From an uncultured Planctomycetia bacterium (GTDB lineage Bacteria > Omnitrophota > Gorgyraeia > Tantalellales > Tantalellaceae), in contig CAZNEE010000001.1 in assembly GCA_964572255.1 (NCBI GenBank), positions 331,587-395,586 on the forward strand: DNA of 64,000 nucleotides, written 5' to 3'. Positions 886-52,184 of the stretch are shown here, piece by piece; the first letter of the stretch is position 1, and each line of letters starts with the position of its first letter. The translations under genes and the position numbers were made by a program. The notes below the pieces were generated by a model, which made no database searches, was not told the origin of the DNA, and saw only the letters and a program-made list of their open reading frames with translations.

Positions 886-2055
886 ATGGATATTGATTTT
901 GCAGATCGTTTAAAAAAGTTACCGCCGTATTTATTTGAAGAGATAGACAAAGCGAAAAATAAAGCTATTGAAGAAGGCAGGCCAATAATTAATCTGGGCG
1001 TTGGTGATCCGGATACTCCCACTCCGGATTTTATTATAAAGAAGCTTAATGAAGCCAGTAAGGATCCGTCCACGCATAATTATCCTTTTAACAGTGGCAT
1101 AAAACCACTAAGGGACGAGATGGCCGCATGGTATAAGACCAGGTTCGGCGTCGATCTTGATCCCGATACTGAAATACTGCCGCTTTTAGGGTCCAAAGAA
1201 GGAATAGCGCATATTCCGCTTGCGTTTGTTAATCCGGAAGAGGAAGTCCTTATACCAGATCCGGGCTATCCGCCGTATAATTCCGGTTCTATCTTCGCGA
1301 GCAGCAAGGTCAACCTGATGCCGCTTTTAAAAGAGAAAGATTTCCTGCCTGATTTGGGGGCTATCGATAGAGGCGCGGCTAGTAGATCAAAACTCATGCA
1401 TATCAACTATCCCAATAATCCTACGGGAGCTACGTGTGATATTGCTTTTTACGAGGATGTGGTCAAGTTCGCGAAAAAACATAATATCATCGTGTGTTCC
1501 GACGCCGCTTATACTGAGATCAGTTATGATGGATATGATCCGCCAAGTTTTCTTCAGGTAAAGGGCGCAAAAGATGTCGGGATAGAGTTCCATTCTCTTT
1601 CAAAAACCTTTAATATGACCGGTTGGCGGGTAGGCATGGCTGTCGGTAATGCTAAAGTTATAGCGGGACTGGCAAAAGTAAAAGCGAATATCGATTCGGG
1701 CATTTTTACGGCGGTACAATATGCCGCCGTAGAAGCTTTAAAAAATGCGGAAAAGGTCAGAAGGGACCTCAATCGTCTTTATACGGAAAGACGAAATACG
1801 CTTATTGAAGGGCTCAAAAAAGCAGGATGGGATATTGCATCTCCCAAAGCTACATTTTATGTATGGGCGCCCGTATTCGGCAATTACGATTCCACATCTT
1901 TAGCTAAGGCTCTTCTGGATAAAGCAGACATTGTCGCGACTCCGGGTATCGGATTCGGAAAATACGGCGAAGGATACGTCCGGATGACACTAACTGTTAG
2001 TGCAGAAAAACTGCAGGAAGCCGCGGGCAGGATCAAAAAAGCGTTTTTTAGTTAA
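886..2055 (+). CDS. dapL: LL-diaminopimelate aminotransferase-like class I aminotransferase
   Basis: N-terminus ...LPPYLFEEIDKAK... is DapL-like; PLP-aminotransferase fold; located between dapB and folK with no dapD/C/E nearby. Confidence 0.65.
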   Translation: MDIDFADRLKKLPPYLFEEIDKAKNKAIEEGRPIINLGVGDPDTPTPDFIIKKLNEASKDPSTHNYPFNSGIKPLRDEMAAWYKTRFGVDLDPDTEILPLLGSKEGIAHIPLAFVNPEEEVLIPDPGYPPYNSGSIFASSKVNLMPLLKEKDFLPDLGAIDRGAASRSKLMHINYPNNPTGATCDIAFYEDVVKFAKKHNIIVCSDAAYTEISYDGYDPPSFLQVKGAKDVGIEFHSLSKTFNMTGWRVGMAVGNAKVIAGLAKVKANIDSGIFTAVQYAAVEALKNAEKVRRDLNRLYTERRNTLIEGLKKAGWDIASPKATFYVWAPVFGNYDSTSLAKALLDKADIVATPGIGFGKYGEGYVRMTLTVSAEKLQEAAGRIKKAFFS

Positions 2056-2056
2056 A

Positions 2057-2545
2057 TTGAAGTCAATAGCATATCTCGGGATAGGATCTAATATAGGTAA
2101 AAGGGAAGAGAATCTTACGGAAGCTGTTTTGCGGGTAAATGCTGCGGACAGGATAAGCGTGATCCAAAGATCTTCTTACTACAAGACACTCCCGGTGGGC
2201 GGCCCGCCTCAAGAAGATTATTTAAACGGGGTTATAAAGGTGGAAACGGATCTCTCTCCGGATGAATGCTTAAGTGCTTTAAAACAAGTGGAGAAAGATA
2301 TGGGGAGAAAACCAGCGGGGAAGAACCATCCCCGGATCATTGACCTTGATATATTGCTTTATGAAGATACTGTAACGGATACAGAAACGCTTTCAATCCC
2401 TCACCCCAGAATGCATGAGAGATATTTTGTTTTAAGGGGGCTTGCAGAGATAGCTCCGGAAGTTATGCATCCGGTTTTAAAGAAGACAATGAAAGAATTG
2501 TATGAAACTTTGCGAGAAGATGCAGCTGATAGAAAAGATCAGTGA
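2057..2545 (+). CDS. folK: 2-amino-4-hydroxy-6-hydroxymethyldihydropteridine pyrophosphokinase (HPPK)
   Basis: AYLGIGSNIG..., IIDLDILLYED and PHPRMHERYFVL HPPK motifs; start trimmed to a TTG just after the dapL stop (start uncertain). Confidence 0.8.
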   Translation: MKSIAYLGIGSNIGKREENLTEAVLRVNAADRISVIQRSSYYKTLPVGGPPQEDYLNGVIKVETDLSPDECLSALKQVEKDMGRKPAGKNHPRIIDLDILLYEDTVTDTETLSIPHPRMHERYFVLRGLAEIAPEVMHPVLKKTMKELYETLREDAADRKDQ

Positions 2546-2546
2546 T

Positions 2547-3383
2547 ATGAAAGAATATTCCCTCAAGGTGCGGAAAGAGGGGAAGACCATAGGCTTTGTG
2601 CCTACCATGGGGTATTTACATGAAGGCCATTTAAGTTTGATCAGGGCCGCACGGAAGGAATGCGATGCGGTAGTTGTAAGTATTTTTGTCAATCCCATGC
2701 AGTTCGGTCCAAAAGAGGATTTTAAAGAGTACCCGAGAGACCTCGAAAGGGATAAAGGTCTTGCGGGGGAAGCGGGAGCTGACATTGTTTTTTACCCTTC
2801 AAGTGAAGAGATGTACAGTGAAGGTTTCTCTACTTTCGTAAATGTTGAGGGGCGCTATACCGAAACTTTGTGCGCGTTTTCAAGGCCCGGACATTTCAAA
2901 GGAGTTGCTACCGTAGTTTTGAAACTTTTAAATATAGTCTCACCGGACGTGAGTTATTTCGGACAGAAAGATGCGCAGCAGGCAGCCGTTATCAAGAAAA
3001 TGATAAAAGATCTTAACATGGATACCGATATTCGTATCATGCCTATTGTCCGCGAGGATGACGGACTTGCCATGAGTTCACGAAATGTATATCTTTCTGA
3101 AGATGAAAGACGCCAGGCGCTTAACCTTTACAGGTCTTTGGAAAAGGCGAAGGAGATGGTTTGCGGGGGAGAGGCTTCATCCACTGCGATAAAAAGCGAA
3201 ATGAAGAGGATCATAGAGGAAGGAAAAGACTTAAAGATTGATTATATCGAAACAGTTGATGCGGATTCTTTAGAGCCGGTTGAAACAGTAAAAGAGAACA
3301 CCCTCATAGCCGTAGCGGTTTTTATCGGAAAAACGCGGCTTATCGATAATATAATAATAGGAGATATTAATGATAAGGGCTGA
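2547..3383 (+). CDS. panC: pantoate--beta-alanine ligase
   Basis: GFVPTMGYLHEGHLSLI signature; internal ATG at 2547 chosen because it follows the folK stop. Confidence 0.9.
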   Translation: MKEYSLKVRKEGKTIGFVPTMGYLHEGHLSLIRAARKECDAVVVSIFVNPMQFGPKEDFKEYPRDLERDKGLAGEAGADIVFYPSSEEMYSEGFSTFVNVEGRYTETLCAFSRPGHFKGVATVVLKLLNIVSPDVSYFGQKDAQQAAVIKKMIKDLNMDTDIRIMPIVREDDGLAMSSRNVYLSEDERRQALNLYRSLEKAKEMVCGGEASSTAIKSEMKRIIEEGKDLKIDYIETVDADSLEPVETVKENTLIAVAVFIGKTRLIDNIIIGDINDKG

Positions 3384-8983: not shown

Positions 8984-9036
8984 AAGGGCGCGTTACTTTC
9001 TTTCAAGTAATTGACTTCATAAAACTACACTAAGTT

Positions 9037-12000
9037 ATGACGGAACCACGGTCAGATTTTGTACATCTTCATGTACATACCCAATACAGTCTTCTTGACG
9101 GCGCCTGCCGTTTGGATGAACTTCTCGACCTTGCTAAATCCTGCAATATGCCCGCATGCGCCATAACCGATCACGGCAGCATGTTCGGCGCGATAGAGTT
9201 CTACGAAAAGGCGACCGAAAGAGGCATTAAACCCATCATAGGCGCCGAGATCTATGTGGCTCCTGAAAGCAGGTTTGATAAGACCAGCCACGGGATAAAG
9301 GGAGCGTCATACCACCTCGTGCTTCTTGCGAAAAATGCCAAGGGATATCAGAACCTTATAGAGATCGTTTCGATAGGTTATTTGGAAGGCTTTTATTACA
9401 AACCCCGGGTCGATAAAGAAGTACTGGCCCGCTGTTCAGAAGGTCTTATCGCGATGTCAGCCTGCTTAAAAGGCGAGATCGCGCATTTTCTTCTCTCGGA
9501 TCAGTATGACCAGGCAAAAAAAGCGGCGGGAGAATACGCTGATATCTTCGGCAGGGAGAATTTTTACCTGGAGATCCAGGATAACCAGCTGGAAGAGCAG
9601 GAAAAACTCAACAAGGAAATGATAAAACTTGCGCGTGATATGGACCTGGCGATCGTCGCGACGAACGATGTGCATTATTTGGATAGGACCGACGCCAAAG
9701 CCCATGACGCGCTCCTCTGCATACAGACCCAAAGCTTTCTCGATGATGAAGACCGGATGAAGTTCCAGTCGGATCAGATGTATTTCAAATCTCCCGATGA
9801 GATGAAAGCCGCTTTCCGGGATGTGCCGGATGCTGTCGCGAATTCCGTCAAGATAGCGGAAAAATGCAATCTTGAACTGGATTTCAGCGAACTGCATCTT
9901 CCGAAATTTGAAGCGCCGAACGGGGGAGATAACAGTGAGTTCTTAAAACGGCTCATAAGGGAGGGTTTAAAGAAAAGATATCCGGTCATCACGGATGAGA
10001 TAAACCAGAGGGTAAAACACGAGTTCGATATCATCGAACAAAGCGGATACATAAGTTATTTCCTGATAGTATGGGATTTTATCAATCATGCCAAAGAGAA
10101 CAAAATACCCGTAGGGCCGGGCAGAGGTTCCGCGGCGGGGAGTATAATAAGTTATGCCTTGGGGATAACCGACATCGATCCGTTAAAGTACGGTCTTATC
10201 TTTGAGAGGTTCCTTAATCCCGAAAGAGTGTCAATGCCGGATATAGATATAGATTTTTGTTTTGAAAGAAGAGGCGAAGTGATAGATTATGTCGTGAACA
10301 AATACTCCAAGGACAATGTGGCGCAGATAATAACTTTCGGGACGATGCTGGCAAAAGGCGTGATAAGGGATGTGGGAAGGGTCATGGGGCTTCCTTATGC
10401 CGATGTCGATAAGATAGCCAAACTGGTGCCGAATGATCCGGGGATCACTTTAAAACAAGCGATAGAGATCGAGCCCGAGCTGAGGATGAGATACGAGGAT
10501 GATCCGATAATCCGTCAGCTTATAGATATTTCGAGACGTCTTGAAGGCCTTAACAGGCACGCGTCAACACATGCCGCCGGAGTTGTTATTTCGGATAAGC
10601 CCCTCGTAAAACGTATACCGCTTTTTAAGACCGCTGATGACCAGATCACCACGGGCTACACCATGCAGTCTCTTGAGAGAATCGGCATGCTCAAGATGGA
10701 TTTTCTCGGGCTTAAGACGCTTACGGTGATCGATCAGACTGTAAAGATAGTCAAACGCACCAGGGATATCGATGTCGATATTGAAGTTATCCCGCTGGAT
10801 GATCAAAAGACTTTTGAACTTCTTGCCAGAGCCGAGACAGCCGGCGTGTTCCAGCTTGAATCTTCAGGCATGAGAGATCTTCTCAGAAAACTCAAGCCGG
10901 AAAAATTCGAGGACCTGATAGCCATATTGGCTTTGTATCGTCCCGGGCCCATGGGAAGCGGGATGCTCGAGGAATTCATAAAAAGAAAACAGGGGCATAT
11001 TGAAGTCGAGTATGATCATCCGGCGCTTAAACCGATATTAAGGGAGACTTACGGGATAATCGTTTATCAGGAGCAGGTCATGCAGATAGTTTCCGCTCTT
11101 GCCGGCTTCAGCATGGCTGAAGCGGATAATGTCCGCAAAGTCATGTCCAAGAAAAAACCGCAGGAGATGGCGAAGCTGAAAATAAAGTTCCTTGAAGGAA
11201 CAGCTAAAAATAAGATCGACAATGAAACAGCGGAAAAAATATTTGATCTCATCGCATACTTTGCGGGATACGGTTTTAATAAATCCCATTCCACTGCGTA
11301 TGCCATGATAAGTTACCGGACGGCGCATCTTAAGGCGAACTATCCTGTTGAGTTCATGACGGCGCTTCTTACAAGTGAGAAAAATAATACCGACAAAATT
11401 TCCGATTATATCAGTGAATCGATCAGAATGGACATCGAAATACTGCCGCCGGATATAAACGAAAGTTTTAAGGATTTTACGGTTGTCGGAGGGGATATCC
11501 GCTTCGGGCTTTCCGCGGTAAAGAACGTAGGGTCTGTTGCGGCGGAGTCCATAATCACGATAAGGATGGAAAACGGCAAATTCGAATCATTGTATGATTT
11601 TGCGCAGAAAGCGGATTCGAGGAACGTGAATAAAAAAGTCGTGGAAAGCCTTATAAAATGCGGGGCTTTTGATTCTACAGGGATACATCGGTCGCAGGCA
11701 ATGGCGGTACTCGACAAAGTGCTCGAGATGGCAAGCAAGGTCCAGAAAGACAGGCGGAACGGCCAGTTATCATTCTTTGATGAAGAACATTCCGAAGAAA
11801 GTTTCAGGGATAGTTTCCGGGATTTACCTGACATACAGGAGTGGCCGGAGCATGAGCTTTTGGCAAGCGAAAAAGAGATGCTGGGGTTTTATATCACCCA
11901 ACATCCCCTCGCCAGGTTTGAAAGGCTCCTGAACGCTTATTCCACATGCGCCGTATCTGAGCTCAGCGCTCTTGCGGACGGGCAGGTAGTGCTTATAGGA

Positions 12001-12489
12001 GGCATCATAAGCAAGGTACGTTCAACCGTTACGCGTAAGACTGCCGAGAAAATGGCCATAATTACACTGGAGGATCTGAATAATTTTGTCGAGATCTTAG
12101 TGTTCCCTAAAACTTACAGTAAAGTCGCTTCTCTGGTAAAAGAGGATAACACTGTCTATGTCGAGGGGCGATTGAACCTTAGGGAAGAGGAGCCGAAGAT
12201 AGTCGCTGAGAACATGATACCTCTTGAGCAAGTGAAAGAGATGTTCACTAAGTCGGTCCTGATCAAGATGAATACCCTGGGGCTTGAAGAAAATATAATG
12301 GAGAAGGTAAGAAGGGTTATCATGAAACATAAGGGGAAAGTGCCGGTCTTTATCGATCTTATTTCGCCCCAAGGCAGGAAGGTAAGGGTTTCAACCAACA
12401 AAGAGCTGACGGTGTATCCCTCGGATAACATGATAGAGGATTTGGAGGGGGTTGTAGGAAGGGGTAACGTTAAATTTGTAACAAAGTAG
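9037..12489 (+). CDS. dnaE: DNA polymerase III subunit alpha
   Basis: N-terminal PHP domain (LHVHTQYSLLDG), polymerase core, OB fold; 1150 aa. Confidence 0.95.
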   Translation: MTEPRSDFVHLHVHTQYSLLDGACRLDELLDLAKSCNMPACAITDHGSMFGAIEFYEKATERGIKPIIGAEIYVAPESRFDKTSHGIKGASYHLVLLAKNAKGYQNLIEIVSIGYLEGFYYKPRVDKEVLARCSEGLIAMSACLKGEIAHFLLSDQYDQAKKAAGEYADIFGRENFYLEIQDNQLEEQEKLNKEMIKLARDMDLAIVATNDVHYLDRTDAKAHDALLCIQTQSFLDDEDRMKFQSDQMYFKSPDEMKAAFRDVPDAVANSVKIAEKCNLELDFSELHLPKFEAPNGGDNSEFLKRLIREGLKKRYPVITDEINQRVKHEFDIIEQSGYISYFLIVWDFINHAKENKIPVGPGRGSAAGSIISYALGITDIDPLKYGLIFERFLNPERVSMPDIDIDFCFERRGEVIDYVVNKYSKDNVAQIITFGTMLAKGVIRDVGRVMGLPYADVDKIAKLVPNDPGITLKQAIEIEPELRMRYEDDPIIRQLIDISRRLEGLNRHASTHAAGVVISDKPLVKRIPLFKTADDQITTGYTMQSLERIGMLKMDFLGLKTLTVIDQTVKIVKRTRDIDVDIEVIPLDDQKTFELLARAETAGVFQLESSGMRDLLRKLKPEKFEDLIAILALYRPGPMGSGMLEEFIKRKQGHIEVEYDHPALKPILRETYGIIVYQEQVMQIVSALAGFSMAEADNVRKVMSKKKPQEMAKLKIKFLEGTAKNKIDNETAEKIFDLIAYFAGYGFNKSHSTAYAMISYRTAHLKANYPVEFMTALLTSEKNNTDKISDYISESIRMDIEILPPDINESFKDFTVVGGDIRFGLSAVKNVGSVAAESIITIRMENGKFESLYDFAQKADSRNVNKKVVESLIKCGAFDSTGIHRSQAMAVLDKVLEMASKVQKDRRNGQLSFFDEEHSEESFRDSFRDLPDIQEWPEHELLASEKEMLGFYITQHPLARFERLLNAYSTCAVSELSALADGQVVLIGGIISKVRSTVTRKTAEKMAIITLEDLNNFVEILVFPKTYSKVASLVKEDNTVYVEGRLNLREEEPKIVAENMIPLEQVKEMFTKSVLIKMNTLGLEENIMEKVRRVIMKHKGKVPVFIDLISPQGRKVRVSTNKELTVYPSDNMIEDLEGVVGRGNVKFVTK

Positions 12490-17267: not shown

Positions 17268-19589
17268 ATGAATAAAAAAGACAGAATCAATAAGAACGAT
17301 AATTCCACCAGGGCAAGCGAGCTTGTTTCGGGGAACAAAAAAGCGCGCCAGAGTTTCGCTCAAAAGACTGGCGCAAAAACAGGCAATCTTCCTTCGGAAG
17401 GATGGCCTGTTCTGGACCAGATCAAGAAGTTCTTCATGCACAAGGAAGTCCATTCGGCGATCATTATTCTGGTCTTTTTCGCAGCGGCGCTTTCAACGCT
17501 TTTTATAAGTCCCCAGCTTTATTTAAGAAGCATGCATGAAGGGGACATCGCTCTTAAAGACATATATGCTCCGTATGATTTTACCTATAATTGGGGCATC
17601 AATGAAGACCTTACGCAAAAGGCGAAAGAGGCCGCCGTTTCAGCGGTTCCTTTCTCGGTCCGAAGAGATCCTGCCGTTGAGAAGAAGATGTCGGAGGAGA
17701 TGGCAAAGTTCTTTGATGTTTTGGACGAGCAGAAAAAAAGTGATGCGCAATTCGCCGATAAGCTCTTATCGATCAGGGGCCAGACGGGCACAGATCTTTC
17801 CGATAAGAACATAAAAACGCTTCTTGAATACCGAAACATAAAAAAAATATCTAAAAGCGCACAGCAGGTACAGGAAAATGTTTTTCTTATAGGATACATT
17901 ACGGATGAGAACGCTGATCGTTTGAAGAGCGAAGGTTTTAATAGGGTAATAGTGTTCGATGAAAAGACCGGATTGGAAATGGAAAGATCTATCGGGGATC
18001 TTCTGGACAAAGAAAAGGTTCAAGGGATAATAGAAAGTTACGCGGTAACATATATTCCGGACCGAAAATTAAGACCCGCTGTTTCCGCGCTTGTTAAGGA
18101 ATATGTAAAACCTAACTTAGAGCCCGATGAAAAAAGAACCGCCCTTAAAAAGGAAGAGACCTCTAAAAATTTCCTGCCTGTATATAATACGTTTGACGTA
18201 AGCAAGAACGAGCTCATTGTTGAAAAGGGCACAAGGGTCAATGCCCGGCATATTGCTCAGGTATCCCAGCTGAGGCAGTTCCGCACTAAAAGCAAACAGC
18301 CCGGATTTTTTCTGGGGATGACTCTTCTTTTTCTTTTGATGGGACTGGTAGCTGCGGTTTACATGCATTTCACGAGAAAAAAGACCTTTCTTTCCAGCCC
18401 CAAAGATATCGGAATAGTTTTATTGAACATGTATTTGATGCTGGTTATTGCCCAGTTCATTATAAGAGCGCCTCAGCCGAGTTATTTCATTCCGCTTGCC
18501 GGCATGGGCATGATGACCATGCTTCTTTCAGGATTCAATGGCGCTTTCTTGAGCGTTTTATTGATGAGTTCGCTCATAGCGATACTTACCGGAGGTAAGA
18601 TCGAAGTGGGAATGGTGCTCCTGATAAGCAGCGTAGTGGGCATGTATGCGGTTAGAAACGCGAGAAAACGGTCGGATATTTTATGGGCCGGTCTTTTAGC
18701 GGGAATCGCGAAGTTTATCTCCATAGTATGCGTGGGGCTTATCAGCGGGATAGAACCGGAAGTTTTTGCGAGTGACGGTCTGTGGGGCGTGGCAAGCGGA
18801 GTATTTTCGGGGTTCATAGTGATGGGGCTTTTGCCTGTTTTCGAACATCTTTTTAAAGTGCCGACCAATATCAGCCTTCTTGAACTTTCGGACATGAATC
18901 ATCCGCTCCTGAAGAAGCTCGCGATGGAAGCCCCCGGAACATATCATCACAGCGTGATGGTGGGCAACCTTGCCGAAGCCGCATGCGATTGTATCGGCGC
19001 GAACAGTTTACTTGCCAGGGTGGGTGCCTATTATCATGATATAGGAAAAATAGCCAAGGCGTCCTATTTCAGTGAAAATGAAATGGGGGCTCCTTCAAAG
19101 CATTCCAAGCTGACGCCTTCAATGAGCGCATTGATCATCGCGAAGCATGTGAAAGAAGGCGCTGAAGTAGCGAAAAAATATAAATTGAACAATACCTTGG
19201 TAGATTTTATCGCCCAGCATCACGGCGACAGCCTGATCTCCTTCTTTTATCAGAAGGCCATAGAAAAGAGTGAAAAAGGGGAGGGTGAGGTCCTGAAAGA
19301 GGAGAATTTCCGTTACCCCGGGCCTAAACCCCAGACAAAGGAGACAGCTATTGTTCTTTTGGCGGATGCGGTCGAGGCTTCAAGCCGTTCTTTGGAAGAA
19401 CCCACACCGTCAAGTATCCGCAACCTTGTAAGGAAGATCATCAACAATAAGTTCATCGACGGGCAGCTGGATGAGTGCGATCTGACCTTAAGGGACATGC
19501 ATAATATCGCGGATTGTTTTGTGAGAGTTCTCATGGGGGTCTTTCATACGCGCTTGAATTATCCCGAAGAGACAAAAAAGAACGGCTAG
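17268..19589 (+). CDS. 7TM-receptor-linked HD/HDIG phosphohydrolase
   Basis: Multi-TM central region, C-terminal HD domain (YHHSVMV...YYHDIGK); 773 aa; conserved position between phoH and ybeY. Confidence 0.8.
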   Translation: MNKKDRINKNDNSTRASELVSGNKKARQSFAQKTGAKTGNLPSEGWPVLDQIKKFFMHKEVHSAIIILVFFAAALSTLFISPQLYLRSMHEGDIALKDIYAPYDFTYNWGINEDLTQKAKEAAVSAVPFSVRRDPAVEKKMSEEMAKFFDVLDEQKKSDAQFADKLLSIRGQTGTDLSDKNIKTLLEYRNIKKISKSAQQVQENVFLIGYITDENADRLKSEGFNRVIVFDEKTGLEMERSIGDLLDKEKVQGIIESYAVTYIPDRKLRPAVSALVKEYVKPNLEPDEKRTALKKEETSKNFLPVYNTFDVSKNELIVEKGTRVNARHIAQVSQLRQFRTKSKQPGFFLGMTLLFLLMGLVAAVYMHFTRKKTFLSSPKDIGIVLLNMYLMLVIAQFIIRAPQPSYFIPLAGMGMMTMLLSGFNGAFLSVLLMSSLIAILTGGKIEVGMVLLISSVVGMYAVRNARKRSDILWAGLLAGIAKFISIVCVGLISGIEPEVFASDGLWGVASGVFSGFIVMGLLPVFEHLFKVPTNISLLELSDMNHPLLKKLAMEAPGTYHHSVMVGNLAEAACDCIGANSLLARVGAYYHDIGKIAKASYFSENEMGAPSKHSKLTPSMSALIIAKHVKEGAEVAKKYKLNNTLVDFIAQHHGDSLISFFYQKAIEKSEKGEGEVLKEENFRYPGPKPQTKETAIVLLADAVEASSRSLEEPTPSSIRNLVRKIINNKFIDGQLDECDLTLRDMHNIADCFVRVLMGVFHTRLNYPEETKKNG

Positions 19590-27340: not shown

Positions 27341-27417
<77 letters not shown>

Positions 27418-28712: not shown

Positions 28713-29198
28713 ATGAGAACATTCGATCTGGGCGCATTTATATTGTGTGCGATCTATGGAGGTGTACTTGTTTTTTTGATCTCCTTCCTTTTTAATATAA
28801 AGAACATCTTCGGCAACAGCAAGGTCCTGAGATATCTGGCAGGTCATCCTGAATACAAAGATATAGAATTATTGGAAGGGATCATTGAGGTAAGGGACGA
28901 AAGAGTAGATTTTAAGGAACCAGAGGGAAGTAAGATCTATTTTTCGATCCCCATTGATCGGATAAAAGACGTATCTGCGGGCAGTGAAAACTCCGGCTAT
29001 CAGGAAAGTATTTTTAATAAGTTCTTTAATATTCTTTCGGAAGATCAACTTCTATGCATTAAACTCCGCCATGAAAATAGCGAGCATACATTACAGTTCT
29101 CAGCTCATAAAGCTTCTTCGGTAAATGATGACATAAAGAAGGAGATATTGGATGCAAAATCCCGGACAAATCAAAAGAATGCCAGTGCGAGAGCCTAA
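28713..29198 (+). CDS. hypothetical membrane-anchored protein
   Basis: One N-terminal TM helix and a soluble domain of about 120 aa; no recognised motif. Confidence 0.5.
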   Translation: MRTFDLGAFILCAIYGGVLVFLISFLFNIKNIFGNSKVLRYLAGHPEYKDIELLEGIIEVRDERVDFKEPEGSKIYFSIPIDRIKDVSAGSENSGYQESIFNKFFNILSEDQLLCIKLRHENSEHTLQFSAHKASSVNDDIKKEILDAKSRTNQKNASARA

Positions 29199-29209
29199 GG
29201 GGGGAGCAT

Positions 29210-29536
29210 ATGCCGGATGAAAGAAGCCAACCGTTAGATCCTGAAAATGTAAATCTTGCTTTTGACGAAAATCCCGAGATAAGGGACGGCGAAAGGCTGC
29301 CGATACAACCGCCTTTAAAAGTGCTTCGCTACAGGACCATAAAAAAGAGTACAGGGTTTGGATGGTGGTCTGTTGTAGCCCTGGTCGAGGACCACGGAGA
29401 TAAGCAGATCTGTTTCTATCGCTGGCGGAAAAAAGCCAAAGAGTGGAAAAGAGACAAAAAACTCGCTTTCAAAAGTTACACGGAATGGTCTACGTTCAAG
29501 GAAGCAATAGAGTATTTCCTGGAAGATATGGGTTAA
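29210..29536 (+). CDS. hypothetical protein (Trp/Lys-rich)
   Basis: 108 aa, no recognised motif; compact spacing to the previous gene suggests an operon. Confidence 0.5.
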   Translation: MPDERSQPLDPENVNLAFDENPEIRDGERLPIQPPLKVLRYRTIKKSTGFGWWSVVALVEDHGDKQICFYRWRKKAKEWKRDKKLAFKSYTEWSTFKEAIEYFLEDMG

Positions 29537-29543
29537 AAACTTT

Positions 29544-29765
29544 TCAGGGTACTATCCCGTATTTTTGCACTTCTATGGTCTTGAGGGTCTTATCCATTTC
29601 GGTGAAAAATACAAAATAGATAATTCCCAAAATAATAATTACTACGGCTATCAAAAGTATTGAGAATTCTATCATCGTCAATTCTCTGAAGAAGGATCCT
29701 TTTTTCTTATTATTTTCTTCCATTTTTCCTCTTAAAAAGTATAGCATACGCCCGCGTATATACAA
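29544..29765 (-). CDS. small membrane protein, hypothetical
   Basis: 73 aa with a single hydrophobic helix; convergent with upstream genes. Confidence 0.4.
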   Translation of the reverse strand: MYIRGRMLYFLRGKMEENNKKKGSFFRELTMIEFSILLIAVVIIILGIIYFVFFTEMDKTLKTIEVQKYGIVP

Positions 29766-29794
29766 AAAATATGTTATTTTCAGCTGTTATTTAC

Positions 29795-29823
29795 TTGACA
29801 AAACAGGGCAAAAATGTTAAAAT
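29795..29823 (+). promoter_or_regulatory. sigma-70-like promoter TTGACA-17-TAAAAT
   Basis: Canonical hexamers about 25 nt upstream of the 29848 start. Confidence 0.5.
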
Positions 29824-29847
29824 AATAAAAATCTAGGTTAGGGCAAA

Positions 29848-30171
29848 ATGAGAAAGATCACGATAGTCACCATAGTGTTTTTATTTCTATTAATGCTCAT
29901 CCCGCACTTGAAAGCGGATGATATGATCCCCAATGCCGGATTAATTTCCGATTTTACAAAGAGTGACCATCCCTCATGTATAACTGGTAATAAGCTTTGT
30001 TTTTCTAAAGAAAACGTCAAAGCCGAAATGGAGGAAGCCTCCCGGAATGAGGTCGATGACGAACTTTACAACCTGGCGGAGATCGTGTTCGAAAAGGCGA
30101 AAGGAGAAACTCTCACGCCTCTTGCGATGGACAAGGCCGAATTTGAAAATGAAGGCGATCTGTATCTTTAA
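29848..30171 (+). CDS. small secreted protein, hypothetical
   Basis: Signal peptide; 107 aa; acidic C-terminus. Confidence 0.5.
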   Translation: MRKITIVTIVFLFLLMLIPHLKADDMIPNAGLISDFTKSDHPSCITGNKLCFSKENVKAEMEEASRNEVDDELYNLAEIVFEKAKGETLTPLAMDKAEFENEGDLYL

Positions 30172-30303
30172 TTAAAAACGGAATTCCATTTCTATAATTT
30201 TCCTTACACTTGCTTATTTTTCATCCTCTAATTTAATTTTCTTGAAATCCTGCGTGATCGACGCTATTATAAATGTCAGTTTCTTCTTAAAAAAGGGGCC
30301 CGT

Positions 30304-31080
30304 ATGAATAAAAGGTTATATGTAATTGCAGCCGTTATTGCCGTGATCTTGATTTTGATCATGGCAAGGGACACGATGATCGAAAGTACCCTTAAAAAAG
30401 GCGTCAAGCGCCTTACGGGCTTGAGCATGAGGATCCAAAGGTTTAGAACAGGCGTTTTCAAGCCTTATGTGGACATAAAAGATCTCGTGCTTTATAATCC
30501 CAAAGGGTTCAAGGACAGGGTCATGGCCGATGTGCCGGAGATCTATATTTATTACGATCTGCCGTACATGTTCAAAGGCAGGCATCATTTTTACGAGATG
30601 CGCCTGGAATTACAGGAATTATTGGTCGTGAGAAATGAAAACAGCGAACTCAATCTTAACGCGTTAAAATCCTTGAAAGACCAGAGAAGCGGCGCTGCAG
30701 AAAAGCAAGAGAGGAAGCCCCTCAAGCTGGACATCGATTATCTGCATTTAAAAATAGGAAAGGTTATATACAAGGATTATTCCAAAGGCGGCGCGCCGGC
30801 AGTAAAAGAATTTAATATAGGCCTTGATGAAAGCTACACCGGGGTCGATGATCCCTATGAACTTGTAAATCTGATAATTGTAAAAGCTATCAGAAAAACT
30901 ACCATAGCGCAGCTTACCGGGTTCGATCTGCAGAGTCTGCAGGATTCCCTTTCTGTTGCTGTCAGTGCGGGCAAAAAGACGATAAAAACCGTGGCCGTTG
31001 CCGCGGAGGATACATTAAAAGATACAACTAAAGTTCTGAAAGAGGCCATTAAACTTCCGTTCAAGAAGACGGAAAAGTAG
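30304..31080 (+). CDS. membrane-anchored hypothetical protein
   Basis: N-terminal TM helix, 258 aa; lysine-rich C-terminal region. Confidence 0.55.
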   Translation: MNKRLYVIAAVIAVILILIMARDTMIESTLKKGVKRLTGLSMRIQRFRTGVFKPYVDIKDLVLYNPKGFKDRVMADVPEIYIYYDLPYMFKGRHHFYEMRLELQELLVVRNENSELNLNALKSLKDQRSGAAEKQERKPLKLDIDYLHLKIGKVIYKDYSKGGAPAVKEFNIGLDESYTGVDDPYELVNLIIVKAIRKTTIAQLTGFDLQSLQDSLSVAVSAGKKTIKTVAVAAEDTLKDTTKVLKEAIKLPFKKTEK

Positions 31081-45004: not shown

Positions 45005-45110
45005 GATATTATATATAATTGTATTGTGCGGATAAGTTTTTTGACGGGATTATTTTATCAAATATGGGCAGCATTGTCCAAATATACTCTATTGAGATAT
45101 GTTAAATATA

Positions 45111-45185
45111 ATAGCGCAGTATGTTCCCGTACAGGGAGGATCCACACCGGGCGGAGGGGCCCTGGTAGGGAACATACTGTGCTAT
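45111..45185 (+). repeat. conserved-core hairpin element, copy H1
   Basis: 18-bp stem ATAGCGCAGTATGTTCCC/GGGAACATACTGTGCTAT (one G-T wobble) enclosing core GGGAGGATCCACACCGGGCGGAGGGGCCC; about 10 nt upstream of the nitroreductase ATG. Confidence 0.7.
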
Positions 45186-45195
45186 TTGGTTTAAG

Positions 45196-45738
45196 ATGGA
45201 ATTCATAGAATTGGCAAAGATGCGCAGAAGCGTACGTTCTTATCAAGATAAGAACATAAGGCATGAGGATCTCCTATCCTGCGTCGATGCCGCGCGTTAT
45301 GCGCCTTCGGCATGCAACACCCAGCCCTGGAAATTCATCATAGTTGATGACCCCGAAAAAAGAGGGGAAATGGCCGGGATCTTTAGGTCCAAAATGTATC
45401 AGATGAATTCTTTTGCGTCCGAAGCGGCCGCTTTTATCGTGATCATTTCTGAGAAACAAAATCTTCCGGCCTGGCTGGGAGGGAAGATAAAAAATACCGA
45501 TTTCAGGAGGATCGATGTCGGTATTGCCTGCGCCCATGTTGTGCTGCGGGCGGCTGAACTGGGTATAGGCACGTGCATTTTAGGATGGTTTGACGAAAAA
45601 AAGATCAAAGAGATACTTTCGATCCCGAGAAGGAAAAAGATCGAACTTGTTATATCCATGGGATATCCGGCTGAAACCGAATTCAGGGAAAGACGGCTTA
45701 AGGAAAAAGATGAGGTCTCATCAAGCAATAAGTATTAA
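45196..45738 (+). CDS. nitroreductase family protein
   Basis: RRSVRSY ... ARYAPSACNTQPWKFIIV signature. Confidence 0.85.
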   Translation: MEFIELAKMRRSVRSYQDKNIRHEDLLSCVDAARYAPSACNTQPWKFIIVDDPEKRGEMAGIFRSKMYQMNSFASEAAAFIVIISEKQNLPAWLGGKIKNTDFRRIDVGIACAHVVLRAAELGIGTCILGWFDEKKIKEILSIPRRKKIELVISMGYPAETEFRERRLKEKDEVSSSNKY

Positions 45739-49871: not shown

Positions 49872-50945
49872 CTATTTACTTCTATTTAGATCTTGCATGT
49901 TCTTATATCTTGCCTCGATGATCTTTTCAGCCGGTTTGTTCTGGGGAGTGAATTGCCTGTTGTGCTTTCCTCCGGCATAAATATTTGTGTTCCATCTCCA
50001 CCAGTAAACACCTGCCAGCCAGCTTGATCCCTCGAAGCTTTCAAAAAAGGCCTTATAGCATTTTGCCTGAGTTTCTATATCGGCATTACCGAAAGTACCG
50101 CCTTGCCACGGATTGCTTGCGGCGTGAGAAGTAGATGCATAACCGATCTCGGTGAAAATGATCGGCTTATTTATTTGTTTTTGCCACGCCTCAAGGTCAT
50201 ATTTCCATTTTTCCCAGCCGGTTTTTATGTCTTCCACGGTCGGGTTCGATTTATAGGTAAGAGGAAAATACGCGTCAATACCGACATAATCAAGATCTTT
50301 CCAGAATTTTATGTTCTTATAATTATCCCAGTTGGCGGCGTAAATAAGTTTTCCGCTATATACCTTTTTAACCTCGGGGATGATCATATCCTCCCAAATG
50401 CCGTTCTTTTGAGCGGCGAACGCGAGTTCTGTGCCGATGCAGAAGAGTTCCACATCAAGCTTTTCGGCTATTTTCGCGTAATGCCTTATGAATTTGCAGT
50501 ATTCCACGGCCCATTTTTGCCAATCCTCTTCATTTGTAAATCCTATATCCGCGCGCCAGTAAGTGCCGTCATGTTTATCAATAAGATCAATATGAGGTTT
50601 TAACATGACTTTCATGCCGAGCTTATGGGCGGTTTTAATGGCATGTCTTATGCTGAAATCGGCTGGCGTTTGATCCGTTCTCTTTATTTTTGTAGAATTA
50701 TGCTTTTCCTGATATTGAGTTACGCATATCGCCACATATTCCACACCGATCTCGGACAGTTTCTTAAGGGAAAGATCAGAATATTTCGAGGCAAAACAGT
50801 CCCTGTCCCAGCCGACATAACTCATCCCCTTTTGGAAAAGGGGAGCGGTTACATCCGCATAAAGGACTGCGTTTGATGTCAGGCTTACGATAATTAATGT
50901 CAAAGATAATATTTTGAACCAGTGTTTTAATTGACGGCTTTTCAT
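49872..50945 (-). CDS. secreted glycoside hydrolase, clan GH-A TIM-barrel (GH5/GH113-like)
   Basis: Signal peptide; (beta/alpha)8 pattern with FTEIGY-type nucleophile motif; ATG at 50943-50945 with RBS AAAGGAGG preferred over the TTG in the ORF track. Confidence 0.65.
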   Translation of the reverse strand: MKSRQLKHWFKILSLTLIIVSLTSNAVLYADVTAPLFQKGMSYVGWDRDCFASKYSDLSLKKLSEIGVEYVAICVTQYQEKHNSTKIKRTDQTPADFSIRHAIKTAHKLGMKVMLKPHIDLIDKHDGTYWRADIGFTNEEDWQKWAVEYCKFIRHYAKIAEKLDVELFCIGTELAFAAQKNGIWEDMIIPEVKKVYSGKLIYAANWDNYKNIKFWKDLDYVGIDAYFPLTYKSNPTVEDIKTGWEKWKYDLEAWQKQINKPIIFTEIGYASTSHAASNPWQGGTFGNADIETQAKCYKAFFESFEGSSWLAGVYWWRWNTNIYAGGKHNRQFTPQNKPAEKIIEARYKNMQDLNRSK

Positions 50946-50960
50946 CCCCAACCTCCTTTG

Positions 50961-51010
50961 AAAAATAAAAAACCCTATTCGCGAAAGGGAAACTTCTGAC
51001 GAATAGGGTT
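50961..51010 (-). terminator. intrinsic terminator (riboswitch expression platform)
   Basis: On the minus strand, AACCCUAUUCG...CGAAUAGGGUU then UUUUUUAUUUUU immediately before the RBS of the GH gene. Confidence 0.7.
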
Positions 51011-51044
51011 AAAAAATAAAAAGTTGGAAATGTCAGACCGTCTT

Positions 51045-51140
51045 TAATCACTTCGGCAGCCCGGCAGCCATATCCCGCTAGGGGAGTTAGGCTCGAGACT
51101 TTGCAGCCCTATCCTTTCAGATAGTTTGCCCTTATCGATG
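51045..51140 (-). promoter_or_regulatory. c-di-GMP-I (GEMM) riboswitch aptamer
   Basis: Minus-strand RNA ...AAGGGCAAACUAUCUGAAAGGAUAGGGCUGCAAAGUCUCGAGCCUAAC...GCCGGGCUGCCGAAG matches the Vibrio Vc2-type pattern GGCAAACC-GNRA hairpin-GGGACGCAAAGCC-YCGRGCCUAAAC...GCGGGGUUACCGA. Confidence 0.75.
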
Positions 51141-51508
51141 ATCACTTCTGGTATCTATCAGAGAACTTCGGTTTTCAATGTTGCCCGTCTTTTGCTGTTC
51201 TACTTTAAAGGATAATGATAAAAAACTAAAAAGCAAGATTTCAGAACTACCTTTTTTGATGTTTTACATAAAGTAGTTAAGAACTATTTTCTAACATGCT
51301 GTAAGATATATAAAAAGTAAGCTTTCAAGCAATTTATGAGCATTTTAGAGTATTTTGATTTATTGTGGACAAGATAAATTTCCGAAATAGTCAGCTCATT
51401 TTTTGGGGTGCTGCGGAAAAAAGTCAATCCGTTAGGAAATTATTTATCCAATTTTTCCATATTTTCACATTCTACAGAGCTTCACATGAAAGGTTTTGTC
51501 CGATATAA

Positions 51509-51583
51509 ACAGAGCAATATGTTCCCTACCAGGGCCCCTCCGCCCGGTGTGGATCCTCCCTGTACGGGAACATATTGCTCTGT
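51509..51583 (-). repeat. conserved-core hairpin element, copy H2 (reverse orientation)
   Basis: Perfect 18-bp stem ACAGAGCAATATGTTCCC/GGGAACATATTGCTCTGT enclosing the reverse complement of the H1 core with identical GTACAG/CTGGTA spacers. Confidence 0.7.
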
Positions 51584-51654
51584 TTTCAATAGAACAAAAC
51601 TTTTATGGGATCCTTCCTATTAATAGGGATATAGTAAAATATCAAATAATAGTA

Positions 51655-51707: not shown

Positions 51708-52184
51708 ATGAGCCAAAAAGTGCAATTAACAAGAGATGGTTATAATAAGCTTCACAAAGAGCTCGAGGAGCTTAAAGGGAAAAAACGGAGAGAGATATCT
51801 AAAGATATTGCCGAAGCTCGGGCGCATGGCGACCTTAGCGAAAATGCCGAATATGCCGCTGCGAGGGAAGCTCAGGCATTTAATGAAAAACGGATAGCGG
51901 AATTGGAGGACATTTTAAGCCGCGCGCAGATCATAGACGAGAATATGATCTCATCGGATGAGGCTTTGATAGGGGCAACGGTCAAGCTTGAAGATCAATC
52001 AACCGGCGAGGCGCTGACCTATATACTTGTTTCTGAAGAGGAATCGGATTTTGATTCCAATAAGATATCGATTTCATCTCTTGTGGGCAAAGCCATTCTT
52101 GGGCATAAGGTCGGGGACCAGATCGAGATAAATGTTCCCGCAGGCGTGCTTAAATATCGGGTAATAGAGATAACGCGGGAATAA
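51708..52184 (+). CDS. greA: transcription elongation factor GreA
   Basis: Coiled-coil N-terminus with DLSENAEY acidic tip, FKBP-like C-terminus; internal ATG after GGAG. Confidence 0.9.
   Translation: MSQKVQLTRDGYNKLHKELEELKGKKRREISKDIAEARAHGDLSENAEYAAAREAQAFNEKRIAELEDILSRAQIIDENMISSDEALIGATVKLEDQSTGEALTYILVSEEESDFDSNKISISSLVGKAILGHKVGDQIEINVPAGVLKYRVIEITRE

Follow-up and report, generated by a model that had tools for sequence, protein, structure and literature searches.

The class-I (GEMM-I) riboswitches, to which we assign the leader RNA of a glycoside hydrolase gene in a 64-kb stretch of Omnitrophota DNA, respond to cyclic di-GMP (c-di-GMP) and in Clostridioides difficile have flagellar and surface genes as their targets. 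The type example of the Rfam family RF01051 (c-di-GMP-I) is Vc2 of Vibrio cholerae, located upstream of tfoY, in which the P1b hairpin docks through its GNRA (GAAA) loop into a CCUAA/UAUGG receptor; its ligand contacts are G20, A47 and C92, together with a universally conserved interhelical C-G pair (PMC4744006, PMC6140456). The dissociation constant of Vc2 for c-di-GMP is picomolar, and A in place of G20 shifts the specificity towards cyclic GMP-AMP (cGAMP) (PMC6140456). According to a preprint (bioRxiv 10.1101/617340), Vc2 is an off-switch with the ribosome-binding site (RBS) sequestered by a downstream anti-RBS, and most of the C. difficile examples are also off-switches. Bc1 of Bacillus thuringiensis carries a long platform with transcriptional and translational elements, including two terminators, the levels of which are incoherent and unresponsive in vitro (PMC11218506).

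The whole stretch of DNA analysed here (hereafter the window) comprises 64,000 nucleotides (nt) from an uncultured bacterium deposited under Planctomycetia and placed by GTDB in Omnitrophota (GenBank assembly GCA_964572255.1, contig CAZNEE010000001.1, positions 331,587 to 395,586), and the element in question lies on its minus strand in the leader of a gene for a glycoside hydrolase of family 113 (GH113). From the sequence evidence it is near certain that this element is a genuine, canonical class-I c-di-GMP riboswitch, an unexceptional representative of a well-known class of RNAs that agrees with RF01051 in each feature examined. We consider it probable that the aptamer forms part of an OFF switch that is controlled kinetically and operates at two levels; ligand binding, the direction of switching and the kinetic control are all predicted.

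The window aptamer shares with Vc2 the overall architecture and the GGCAAAC, GCAAAG and CUGCCGAA segments with the equivalents of G20, A47 and C92, but differs from it in having a predicted intrinsic terminator in the platform (none is apparent next to Vc2), in the gene (a GH113-like hydrolase) and host (Omnitrophota), and in that the competing helix is predicted to attack the aptamer 5' half, including the G20 region and P1b, and not just the P1 3' strand. With the C. difficile riboswitches, which are mostly off according to the same preprint (bioRxiv 10.1101/617340), it shares the predicted sign; the likeness rests on the sign and not on the platform sequence, and both phylum and regulated gene family differ. 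Similarity to Bc1 lies in the predicted combination of transcriptional and translational elements, and three relatives of the window leader (L097, L094 and L015) also carry two successive terminator-like hairpins; the window itself, however, has a single terminator enclosed by a helix masking the Shine-Dalgarno (SD) sequence, and its two levels are expected to act coherently, each OFF with ligand. The platform, with a competing strand that would invade the aptamer 5' half, thus appears somewhat unusual, as a variation within ordinary riboswitch mechanics.

The aptamer and the linked gene

All 4227 Rfam families were searched with Infernal against both strands of the whole window at the curated gathering thresholds. 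RF01051 was identified at 51140..51052 on the minus strand with 66.0 bits against a gathering score of 35 (E value 1.1e-10 for the whole window), the match spanning model positions 1-87 of 87 without truncation, and a more permissive local Rfam scan gave RF01051 again (E 1.4e-12) and no further credible match. No second riboswitch family at threshold was detected by Rfam in the window, the sole other gathering-level match being a tRNA. The original prediction, made from a minus-strand leader that we found letter for letter in the window, had named c-di-GMP-I and had itself pointed to this search as its refuting check; the family assignment held at full length. The parts of the unit, all on the minus strand, are as follows.

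51052..51140, minus strand: c-di-GMP-I aptamer (RF01051, 66 bits, and covariation in 14 homologues)
51138..51144, minus strand: P1 5' strand UGAUCAU, pairing with GUGAUUA in the unconstrained minimum free energy (MFE) fold
51124-51109, minus strand: P1b, CUAUCU-GAAA-GGAUAG, with the GAAA loop at 51118-51115
51104-51099, minus strand: GCAAAG, read in the sequence
51091-51087 and 51072-51068, minus strand: tetraloop receptor CCUAA and UAUGG, read in the sequence
51045..51051, minus strand: P1 3' strand GUGAUUA, which in the predicted ligand-free fold, together with the linker, holds the anti-SD instead
49872..50945, minus strand: gene for a GH113-family glycoside hydrolase of 357 amino acids (aa) (Pfam PF22612)

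The GNRA-capped P1b, GCAAAG and the aptamer 3' strand (GCCGGGCUGCCGAA) were all located in the leader where the original prediction had seen them, and the GAAA loop with CCUAA...UAUGG matches the classical GAAA tetraloop and its 11-nt receptor. All RF01051 consensus pairs are formed in the window aptamer with the exception of one A-C mismatch. When 14 Omnitrophota homologues were aligned, RNAalifold recovered the consensus fold independently, with compensatory changes at 16 of the 21 pairs, in support of the P1/P2 pairing with tetraloop-receptor arrangement proposed earlier; the flanking P1 helices of the relatives (AUCAAA:UUUGAU, GUCAAA:UUUGAU and AUCAAA:UUUGGU) suggest covariation as well. 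Mapped through the Rfam consensus alignment, G20, A47 and the C92 region of Vc2 would correspond to G51130, A51102 and CC at 51056-51055, respectively, and C51106 and G51065 are candidates for the interhelical pair. Taken from their sequence, these aptamer features point to c-di-GMP as the ligand.

The gene following the leader had been predicted to encode a glycoside hydrolase, and indeed the GH113 profile PF22612 matched residues 48-331 of its product with 209.9 bits against a cut-off of 27. Relatives of known structure (5YLH, 3CIV, 4CD6 and 7DV7) were matched over nearly the full length with E values from 8e-37 (5YLH, the best) to 7e-31 (3CIV), and E173 (in GTEL) and E266 (in FTEIG), which are invariant in 30 homologues and aligned with glutamates of 5YLH, are taken by us to be the catalytic pair of clan GH-A (acid/base and nucleophile). 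These solved structures are of GH113 beta-1,4-mannanases, with which the window protein shares the family and both aligned glutamates; it is, however, distant from them, belongs to a clade found essentially in Omnitrophota only and carries an N-terminal signal-like segment, and from its sequence a mannanase activity should not be assumed. The N-terminus, MKSRQLKHWFKILSLTLIIVSLTSNAVLYA/DV (MKSRQLKH-WFKILSLTLIIVSLTS-NAVLYA/DV), resembles a Sec signal peptide, and the hydrolase would accordingly be exported. The gene appears to be monocistronic, since its downstream neighbour is convergent and its upstream neighbour is the divergent greA (ATG at 51708).

In order to evaluate the linkage between aptamer and gene, 160 loci encoding relatives of the window protein (designated L001 and so on) were scanned with Rfam and with an nhmmer profile made from 14 aptamers, and an aptamer was counted if it lay on the same strand no more than 450 nt upstream of the gene. 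The frequency of upstream aptamers by identity to the window enzyme was as follows.

Identity of at least 60%: aptamer upstream of 10 of 11 genes
Identity of 55-60%: aptamer upstream of 14 of 16 genes
Identity of 50-55%: aptamer upstream of 13 of 17 genes
Identity of 45-50%: aptamer upstream of 3 of 35 genes
Identity below 45%: aptamer upstream of 0 of 88 genes

The aptamer thus precedes 37 of the 44 GH113-like genes that share 50% identity or more, as against 3 of the 123 paralogues at greater distance. Of the seven exceptions, three are in L001, L003 and L008, each of which also carries a riboswitch-controlled copy, and these aptamer-less second genes appear to be partners of tandem pairs. 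The closest homologues (55-66% identity), as far as they are named, all come from metagenome-assembled genomes (MAGs) of Candidatus Omnitrophota, and a few loci from species representatives are deposited under Planctomycetia labels. The linkage by identity class and the RNAalifold covariation together argue that the riboswitch has been conserved under selection within a single orthologous clade in Omnitrophota.

The expression platform and the predicted switch

The original prediction had also described a perfect 11-bp hairpin with a U-run next to the RBS and ATG, and this hairpin was recovered by reading of the sequence, by RNAfold and by covariation in the relatives. The features of the platform used below are as follows.

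51107..51137, minus strand: antiterminator 5' partner, CGA-U-AAGGG-C-AAACU-A-UCUGA-AA-GGAUAGGG, the aptamer 5' half (MFE fold of the truncated transcript)
51018..51032, minus strand: anti-SD CAUUUCCAACUUUUU, pairing with the SD and the start codon (50959-50943) in the MFE fold
50982..51008, minus strand: antiterminator 3' partner, CCCUAUUC-G-UCAGA-AGUUU-CCCUU-UCG, the terminator 5' arm plus the whole loop (MFE fold of the truncated transcript)
50961..51010, minus strand: predicted intrinsic terminator (sequence, RNAfold and covariation in relatives)
50952..50959, minus strand: SD sequence AAAGGAGG, 6 nt before the ATG (50945-50943)

The terminator arms, AACCCUAUUCG (51010-51000) and CGAAUAGGGUU (50981-50971), form a perfect stem of 11 bp around a loop of 18 nt, and the U-rich tract UUUUAUUUUU follows directly on the 3' side, extending to 50961. 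With its 11-12 bp, including 4 G-C pairs, the hairpin is predicted by RNAfold, and in a joint alignment comprising 14 loci a pairing of 97% was obtained for P1b plus the terminator, with 10 compensatory pairs and none of 500 shuffles equalling it; the terminator helix alone was 95.7% paired with 5 compensatory pairs. We predict that the hairpin and the U-run constitute a Rho-independent terminator. The output 'no terminator' of a consensus scanner was discounted, its loop limit being 8 nt against the 18-nt loop of this hairpin.

The terminator has no nucleotides in common with the aptamer, and the only strong competitor found for its 5' arm is the aptamer 5' half, which argues that the ligand would favour termination, that is, OFF. 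This competition takes the form of a long interrupted helix of 26 bp between the aptamer 5' half (51137-51107) and the terminator 5' arm plus loop (51008-50982). For the transcript cut just before the terminator 3' arm, the MFE fold is this antiterminator, with -49.8 kcal/mol, while the same truncated RNA with the Rfam aptamer fold enforced gave -35.8 kcal/mol; after shuffling of the arm-plus-loop segment the value was -39.7 +/- 2.4 kcal/mol (z -4.2), with 5.6 pairs against 26. By our own arithmetic the antiterminator advantage of 14 kcal/mol would be comparable in size to the binding energy that follows from the picomolar dissociation constant of Vc2. A model of two nested helices built by eye (a:a' and b':c) was replaced, as folding gave one continuous interrupted helix of 26 bp; the a:a' segment was not recovered by RNAduplex in the window, owing to a bulge of 1 nt.

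The extended antiterminator was judged by folding of each locus separately, its 8-bp core alone being alignable. At least 16 antiterminator pairs were found in 18 of the 24 testable relatives, as against 3-11 in shuffles. The design holds whether the final hairpin of the relatives is a terminator (L001, L003, L012, L013, L086 and L097) or an SD sequestrator (L018, L091, L093, L101, L098 and L088), and in L092 and L094 the final hairpin is both at once (GGGGUUUUUUAUG). Pairing of the P1b-3' segment of a locus with its own platform exceeded that of shuffles in 14 of 30 loci, and own segments were superior to segments swapped between loci (0 of 5,000 permutations as good, p < 0.0002). The 8-bp core was 91% paired across 14 loci, as compared with 34-64% in slid registers, and at one of its positions A-U is changed to G-C in 4 loci. 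Terminator stem sequences normally drift freely. Here the stem CCCUAU...AUAGGG and the loop motif CCUUU(A/G)UC recur across diverged loci, because of the antiterminator pairing with the aptamer as judged by folding.

At the second level, the anti-SD (51032-51018) forms with AAAGGAGGUUGGGGAUG (50959-50943) a helix that encloses the terminator; this duplex has -17.0 kcal/mol (z -3.97, 0 of 500 shuffles as good). Helices of other sequence but similar placement around the terminator occur in relatives, and of 8 relatives of the terminator type 5 have a significant one. In constrained ensembles, the probability of the GGAGG core being unpaired was 0.0-0.1 with the aptamer fold enforced and the terminator forming alongside, but 0.94-0.98 with the antiterminator enforced; in the latter fold the anti-SD is held by the P1 3' strand and the linker (51054-48:51019-13 and 51045-42:51023-20). 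Because a second helix masks the SD, control is probably exerted at two levels, and since the SD is unpaired in the antiterminator and masked in the terminator ensemble, both levels are predicted to be coherent, OFF with ligand.

Based on these folds, we propose the following course of events. In the absence of c-di-GMP, the emerging terminator 5' arm and loop (51008-50982) would pair with the aptamer 5' half (51137-51107), and the resulting antiterminator would take up the P1b hairpin together with the GGG junction and the region of G20; the terminator 3' arm would then be left without partner, leading to read-through, and the unused P1 3' strand with the linker would hold the anti-SD, leaving the SD free. 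In the presence of c-di-GMP, the aptamer 5' half would be locked in the ligand-bound fold and closed to invasion, so that the 11-bp terminator could form and most transcripts would end in the U-run around 50970-50961; should some RNA be read through, its SD and AUG would be paired with the anti-SD (51032-51018).

Competing explanations

Several observations weigh against this predicted OFF switch. As to the supply of ligand, no GGDEF, HD-GYP or PilZ motif was detected by regular-expression search of the 64-kb window, and the lone EAL-like match, in the open reading frame (ORF) 9034-12486, belongs to DNA polymerase III alpha, so that there is no confirmed EAL. As to the antiterminator, 6 of the 24 testable relatives are without the extended pairing, and the covariation specific to it is modest, the core helix being equalled by 10 of 500 shuffles. 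Counted on fixed alignment columns, the window-derived helix of 26 bp did not reach significance (67.6% paired, equalled by 38 of 500 shuffles), because its distal segments shift register between loci. The loci are phylogenetically related, so that the shuffle p-values overstate independence. For the full leader, the unconstrained MFE fold has P1b and the terminator even without a ligand term (-64.9 kcal/mol, as against -53.4 kcal/mol for the antiterminator), and since the full-length MFE fold already holds the terminator, the decision must be kinetic and co-transcriptional. Finally, the long dual-terminator platform of Bc1, itself of the c-di-GMP-I class, was unresponsive to c-di-GMP in transcription assays (PMC11218506).

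The last two points are at the same time in favour of an explanation to which we give a small but real chance, namely that the aptamer binds c-di-GMP while the terminator is constitutive or unresponsive, the regulation being mainly translational, through RNA stability or via a protein factor. The lack of response of Bc1, with its two terminators, was observed in vitro (PMC11218506), and Vc2 is described as working via RBS sequestration and small-RNA stability and not via termination (bioRxiv 10.1101/617340); the full-length MFE fold of the window leader favours not only the terminator but also a masked SD without ligand, and the conserved leader motif GYTCTTTAA (see below), for which no RNA partner was found, could be the site for a protein. 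What this explanation leaves hard to account for, unless formation of the hairpin is regulated, is the complementarity of the entire terminator loop to the aptamer, which is kept in 18 of 24 relatives.

A switch of the opposite sign, in which c-di-GMP binding blocks the terminator and induces the hydrolase, seems improbable to us, even though ON-type examples of class I are known, such as Vc1 upstream of gbpA (PMC4744006), and the biofilm rationale given with the original prediction is compatible with either sign. The terminator is self-contained and lies about 40 nt downstream of the aptamer without common nucleotides, and the sole strong competitor found for its 5' arm is the aptamer 5' half, which would be sequestered in the ligand-bound fold. 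No competitor for the terminator was seen in the linker or the P1 3' strand on reading of the sequence, for which no systematic search was made, and the same logic applies to those relatives in which the final hairpin masks the SD.

We regard it as highly improbable that the aptamer senses another cyclic dinucleotide, such as 3'3'-cGAMP, or represents a variant in specificity: GEMM-Ib variants carry A at position 20 (PMC6140456), whereas in the window aptamer the column mapped to G20 of Vc2 is occupied by G, and although the orthologous leader of L005 scores best as the c-di-GMP-I-GGC variant RF03167, it is RF01051 and not a variant model that wins the clan competition in the window. A chance resemblance or a decayed relic is hardly credible in view of an E value of 1e-10 in the window and of the retention of the element, with compensatory changes, in front of orthologues of just 50-66% protein identity.

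The Omnitrophota leaders and the surrounding sequences

Candidatus Omnitrophota are known from metagenome-assembled and single-cell genomes. Beyond the window, the predicted OFF switch could belong to a phylum-wide Omnitrophota regulon in which a clade of exported GH113-like proteins is almost always under a c-di-GMP-I OFF switch, ligand-free strand invasion dismantling the aptamer and transcription and translation being controlled coherently; for this extended claim we hold the balance to be about equal. If true, a low level of c-di-GMP in these uncultivated bacteria would trigger secretion of a polysaccharide-cleaving enzyme, either for dispersal or for acting on the surface of a partner. 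The OFF sign would fit a dispersal-type enzyme made at low c-di-GMP, which is speculation, as is the link of the hydrolase to biofilm or matrix put forward in the original prediction. In the literature searched, no publication was found to connect c-di-GMP riboswitches to GH113 or to Omnitrophota. The riboswitch class is a textbook one, and the value of the present case lies in a concrete, conserved output of c-di-GMP in this candidate phylum. The approximately 35 diverged leaders form a natural series, in which the same aptamer and invading segment are coupled to a terminator, an SD sequestrator or both, and should be convenient for studies on the evolution of expression platforms and on the blocking by ligand of strand invasion into an aptamer 5' half.

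Some of the related aptamers carry additional sequences. In L012 (around 2670-2770), L017 (2590-2690), L013 (2650-2735) and L043 (2700-2830), a palindromic insert of 55-90 nt with the ends CCCCGTTAGAGA...TCTCTAACGGGG is located between the first copy of CGATAAAGGCAAAC and a second GCAAAC, the aptamers still scoring 49-72 bits; it looks like a MITE-like (miniature inverted-repeat transposable element) insertion with target duplication in the aptamer 5' junction, and the window has no such insert. Other orthologous aptamers contain one or two extra hairpins, which separate the P1b 5' strand from the GAAA loop in L084 (around 520-600), L082 (around 1240-1300) and L002 (around 2300-2365); in L010 (2665-2816) an insert separates P1b from GCAAAG. 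The best match of RF03167 in L005 is at 2805-2895 (60.7 bits against a gathering threshold of 59), and the Thermotogae-labelled L035 gives an RF03167 match (2629-2703, minus strand) on the opposite strand, adjoining its GH113-like gene. Three c-di-GMP-I aptamers lie within 850 nt in L013, at 1996-2086 (minus), 2424-2515 (minus) and 2722-2836 (plus). The two on the minus strand are each followed by a small ORF, one of 97 aa and the other, with a signal-like N-terminus, of 74 aa. This suggests that c-di-GMP riboswitches serve a larger regulon in Omnitrophota. In L099 (around 1210-1400), at least three tandem copies of a repeat of about 68 nt (TTGGTTTGGGTGTTTCTCTCGAAACACCCAACCATACAGAATCTCTGATTCTGC...) stand between a terminator-like hairpin and the start codon.

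Upstream of the aptamer, most of the leaders carry at a distance of 75-85 nt a putative sigma-70-like promoter composed of TCTTGCTTTTT, 16 nt and TAAACT or TAAAAT. The corresponding features of the window are as follows.

51231..51236, minus strand: predicted -35 element TTGCTT, inside the conserved block TCTTGCTTTTT (51238-51228)
51209..51214, minus strand: predicted -10 element TATCCT, 16 nt after the -35 element, aligned with TAAAAT, TAAACT or TATACT in homologous leaders
51158..51166, minus strand: leader motif GTTCTCTGA, the window form of the conserved G(T/C)TCTTTAA, found in most leaders

Most of the related leaders have the TCTTGCTTTTT block equally far upstream of the aptamer, and its only exact copy in the window is the one given here. 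With TCTTGCTTTTT and TATCCT as the putative promoter, transcription would start at about 51203-51200, giving a 5' untranslated region of about 255 nt. The promoter region (51209-51252 of the window) is unusually well kept between species, and a AAATAGTTGGTTTT-like block precedes TCTTGCTTTTT. The motif G(T/C)TCTTTAA, located downstream of the predicted start and 31-42 nt upstream of GCAAAC, is at the same position in L001, L003-L009, L018, L081, L085-L094 and others. No consistent RNA partner was found for it, the best duplexes being weak (-3 to -10 kcal/mol) and at sites differing between loci, and it may be a protein or operator site; as to whether this motif and the -35 block are general features of the genome, their occurrences in the window are uninformative.

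The rest of the window is of housekeeping nature (dnaE, aspS, hisS, ppdK and greA). Among the long ORFs 57 of 63 are on the plus strand, the GH113 gene being one of the six on the minus strand. The only cyclic-dinucleotide-related candidate seen in the window is a 7TMR-HDED / 7TM / HD-domain protein encoded at 17268-19589 (plus strand), an architecture that we take to be that of PgpH-type c-di-AMP phosphodiesterases. A tRNA-Arg(CCT) is located at 27341-27417, and a segment of about 1.1 kb (29198-30304) is devoid of ORFs of at least 110 aa and of Rfam matches at gathering thresholds. Between the riboswitch promoter and greA lies a hyperstable palindromic element of about 80 nt (51507-51585) with perfect arms of 20 bp and a GC-rich centre of 39 nt (-47.3 kcal/mol, z -8.4). 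For this palindrome Rfam gave only generic matches below threshold, and loci from other genomes yielded no copy of it; it may represent an element of the REP (repetitive extragenic palindromic) or MITE-like type or a structured RNA. A diverged copy of it in the opposite orientation was identified at 45110-45186, upstream of the plus-strand gene 45196-45738, and the changes in the stem between the two copies are apparently compensatory.

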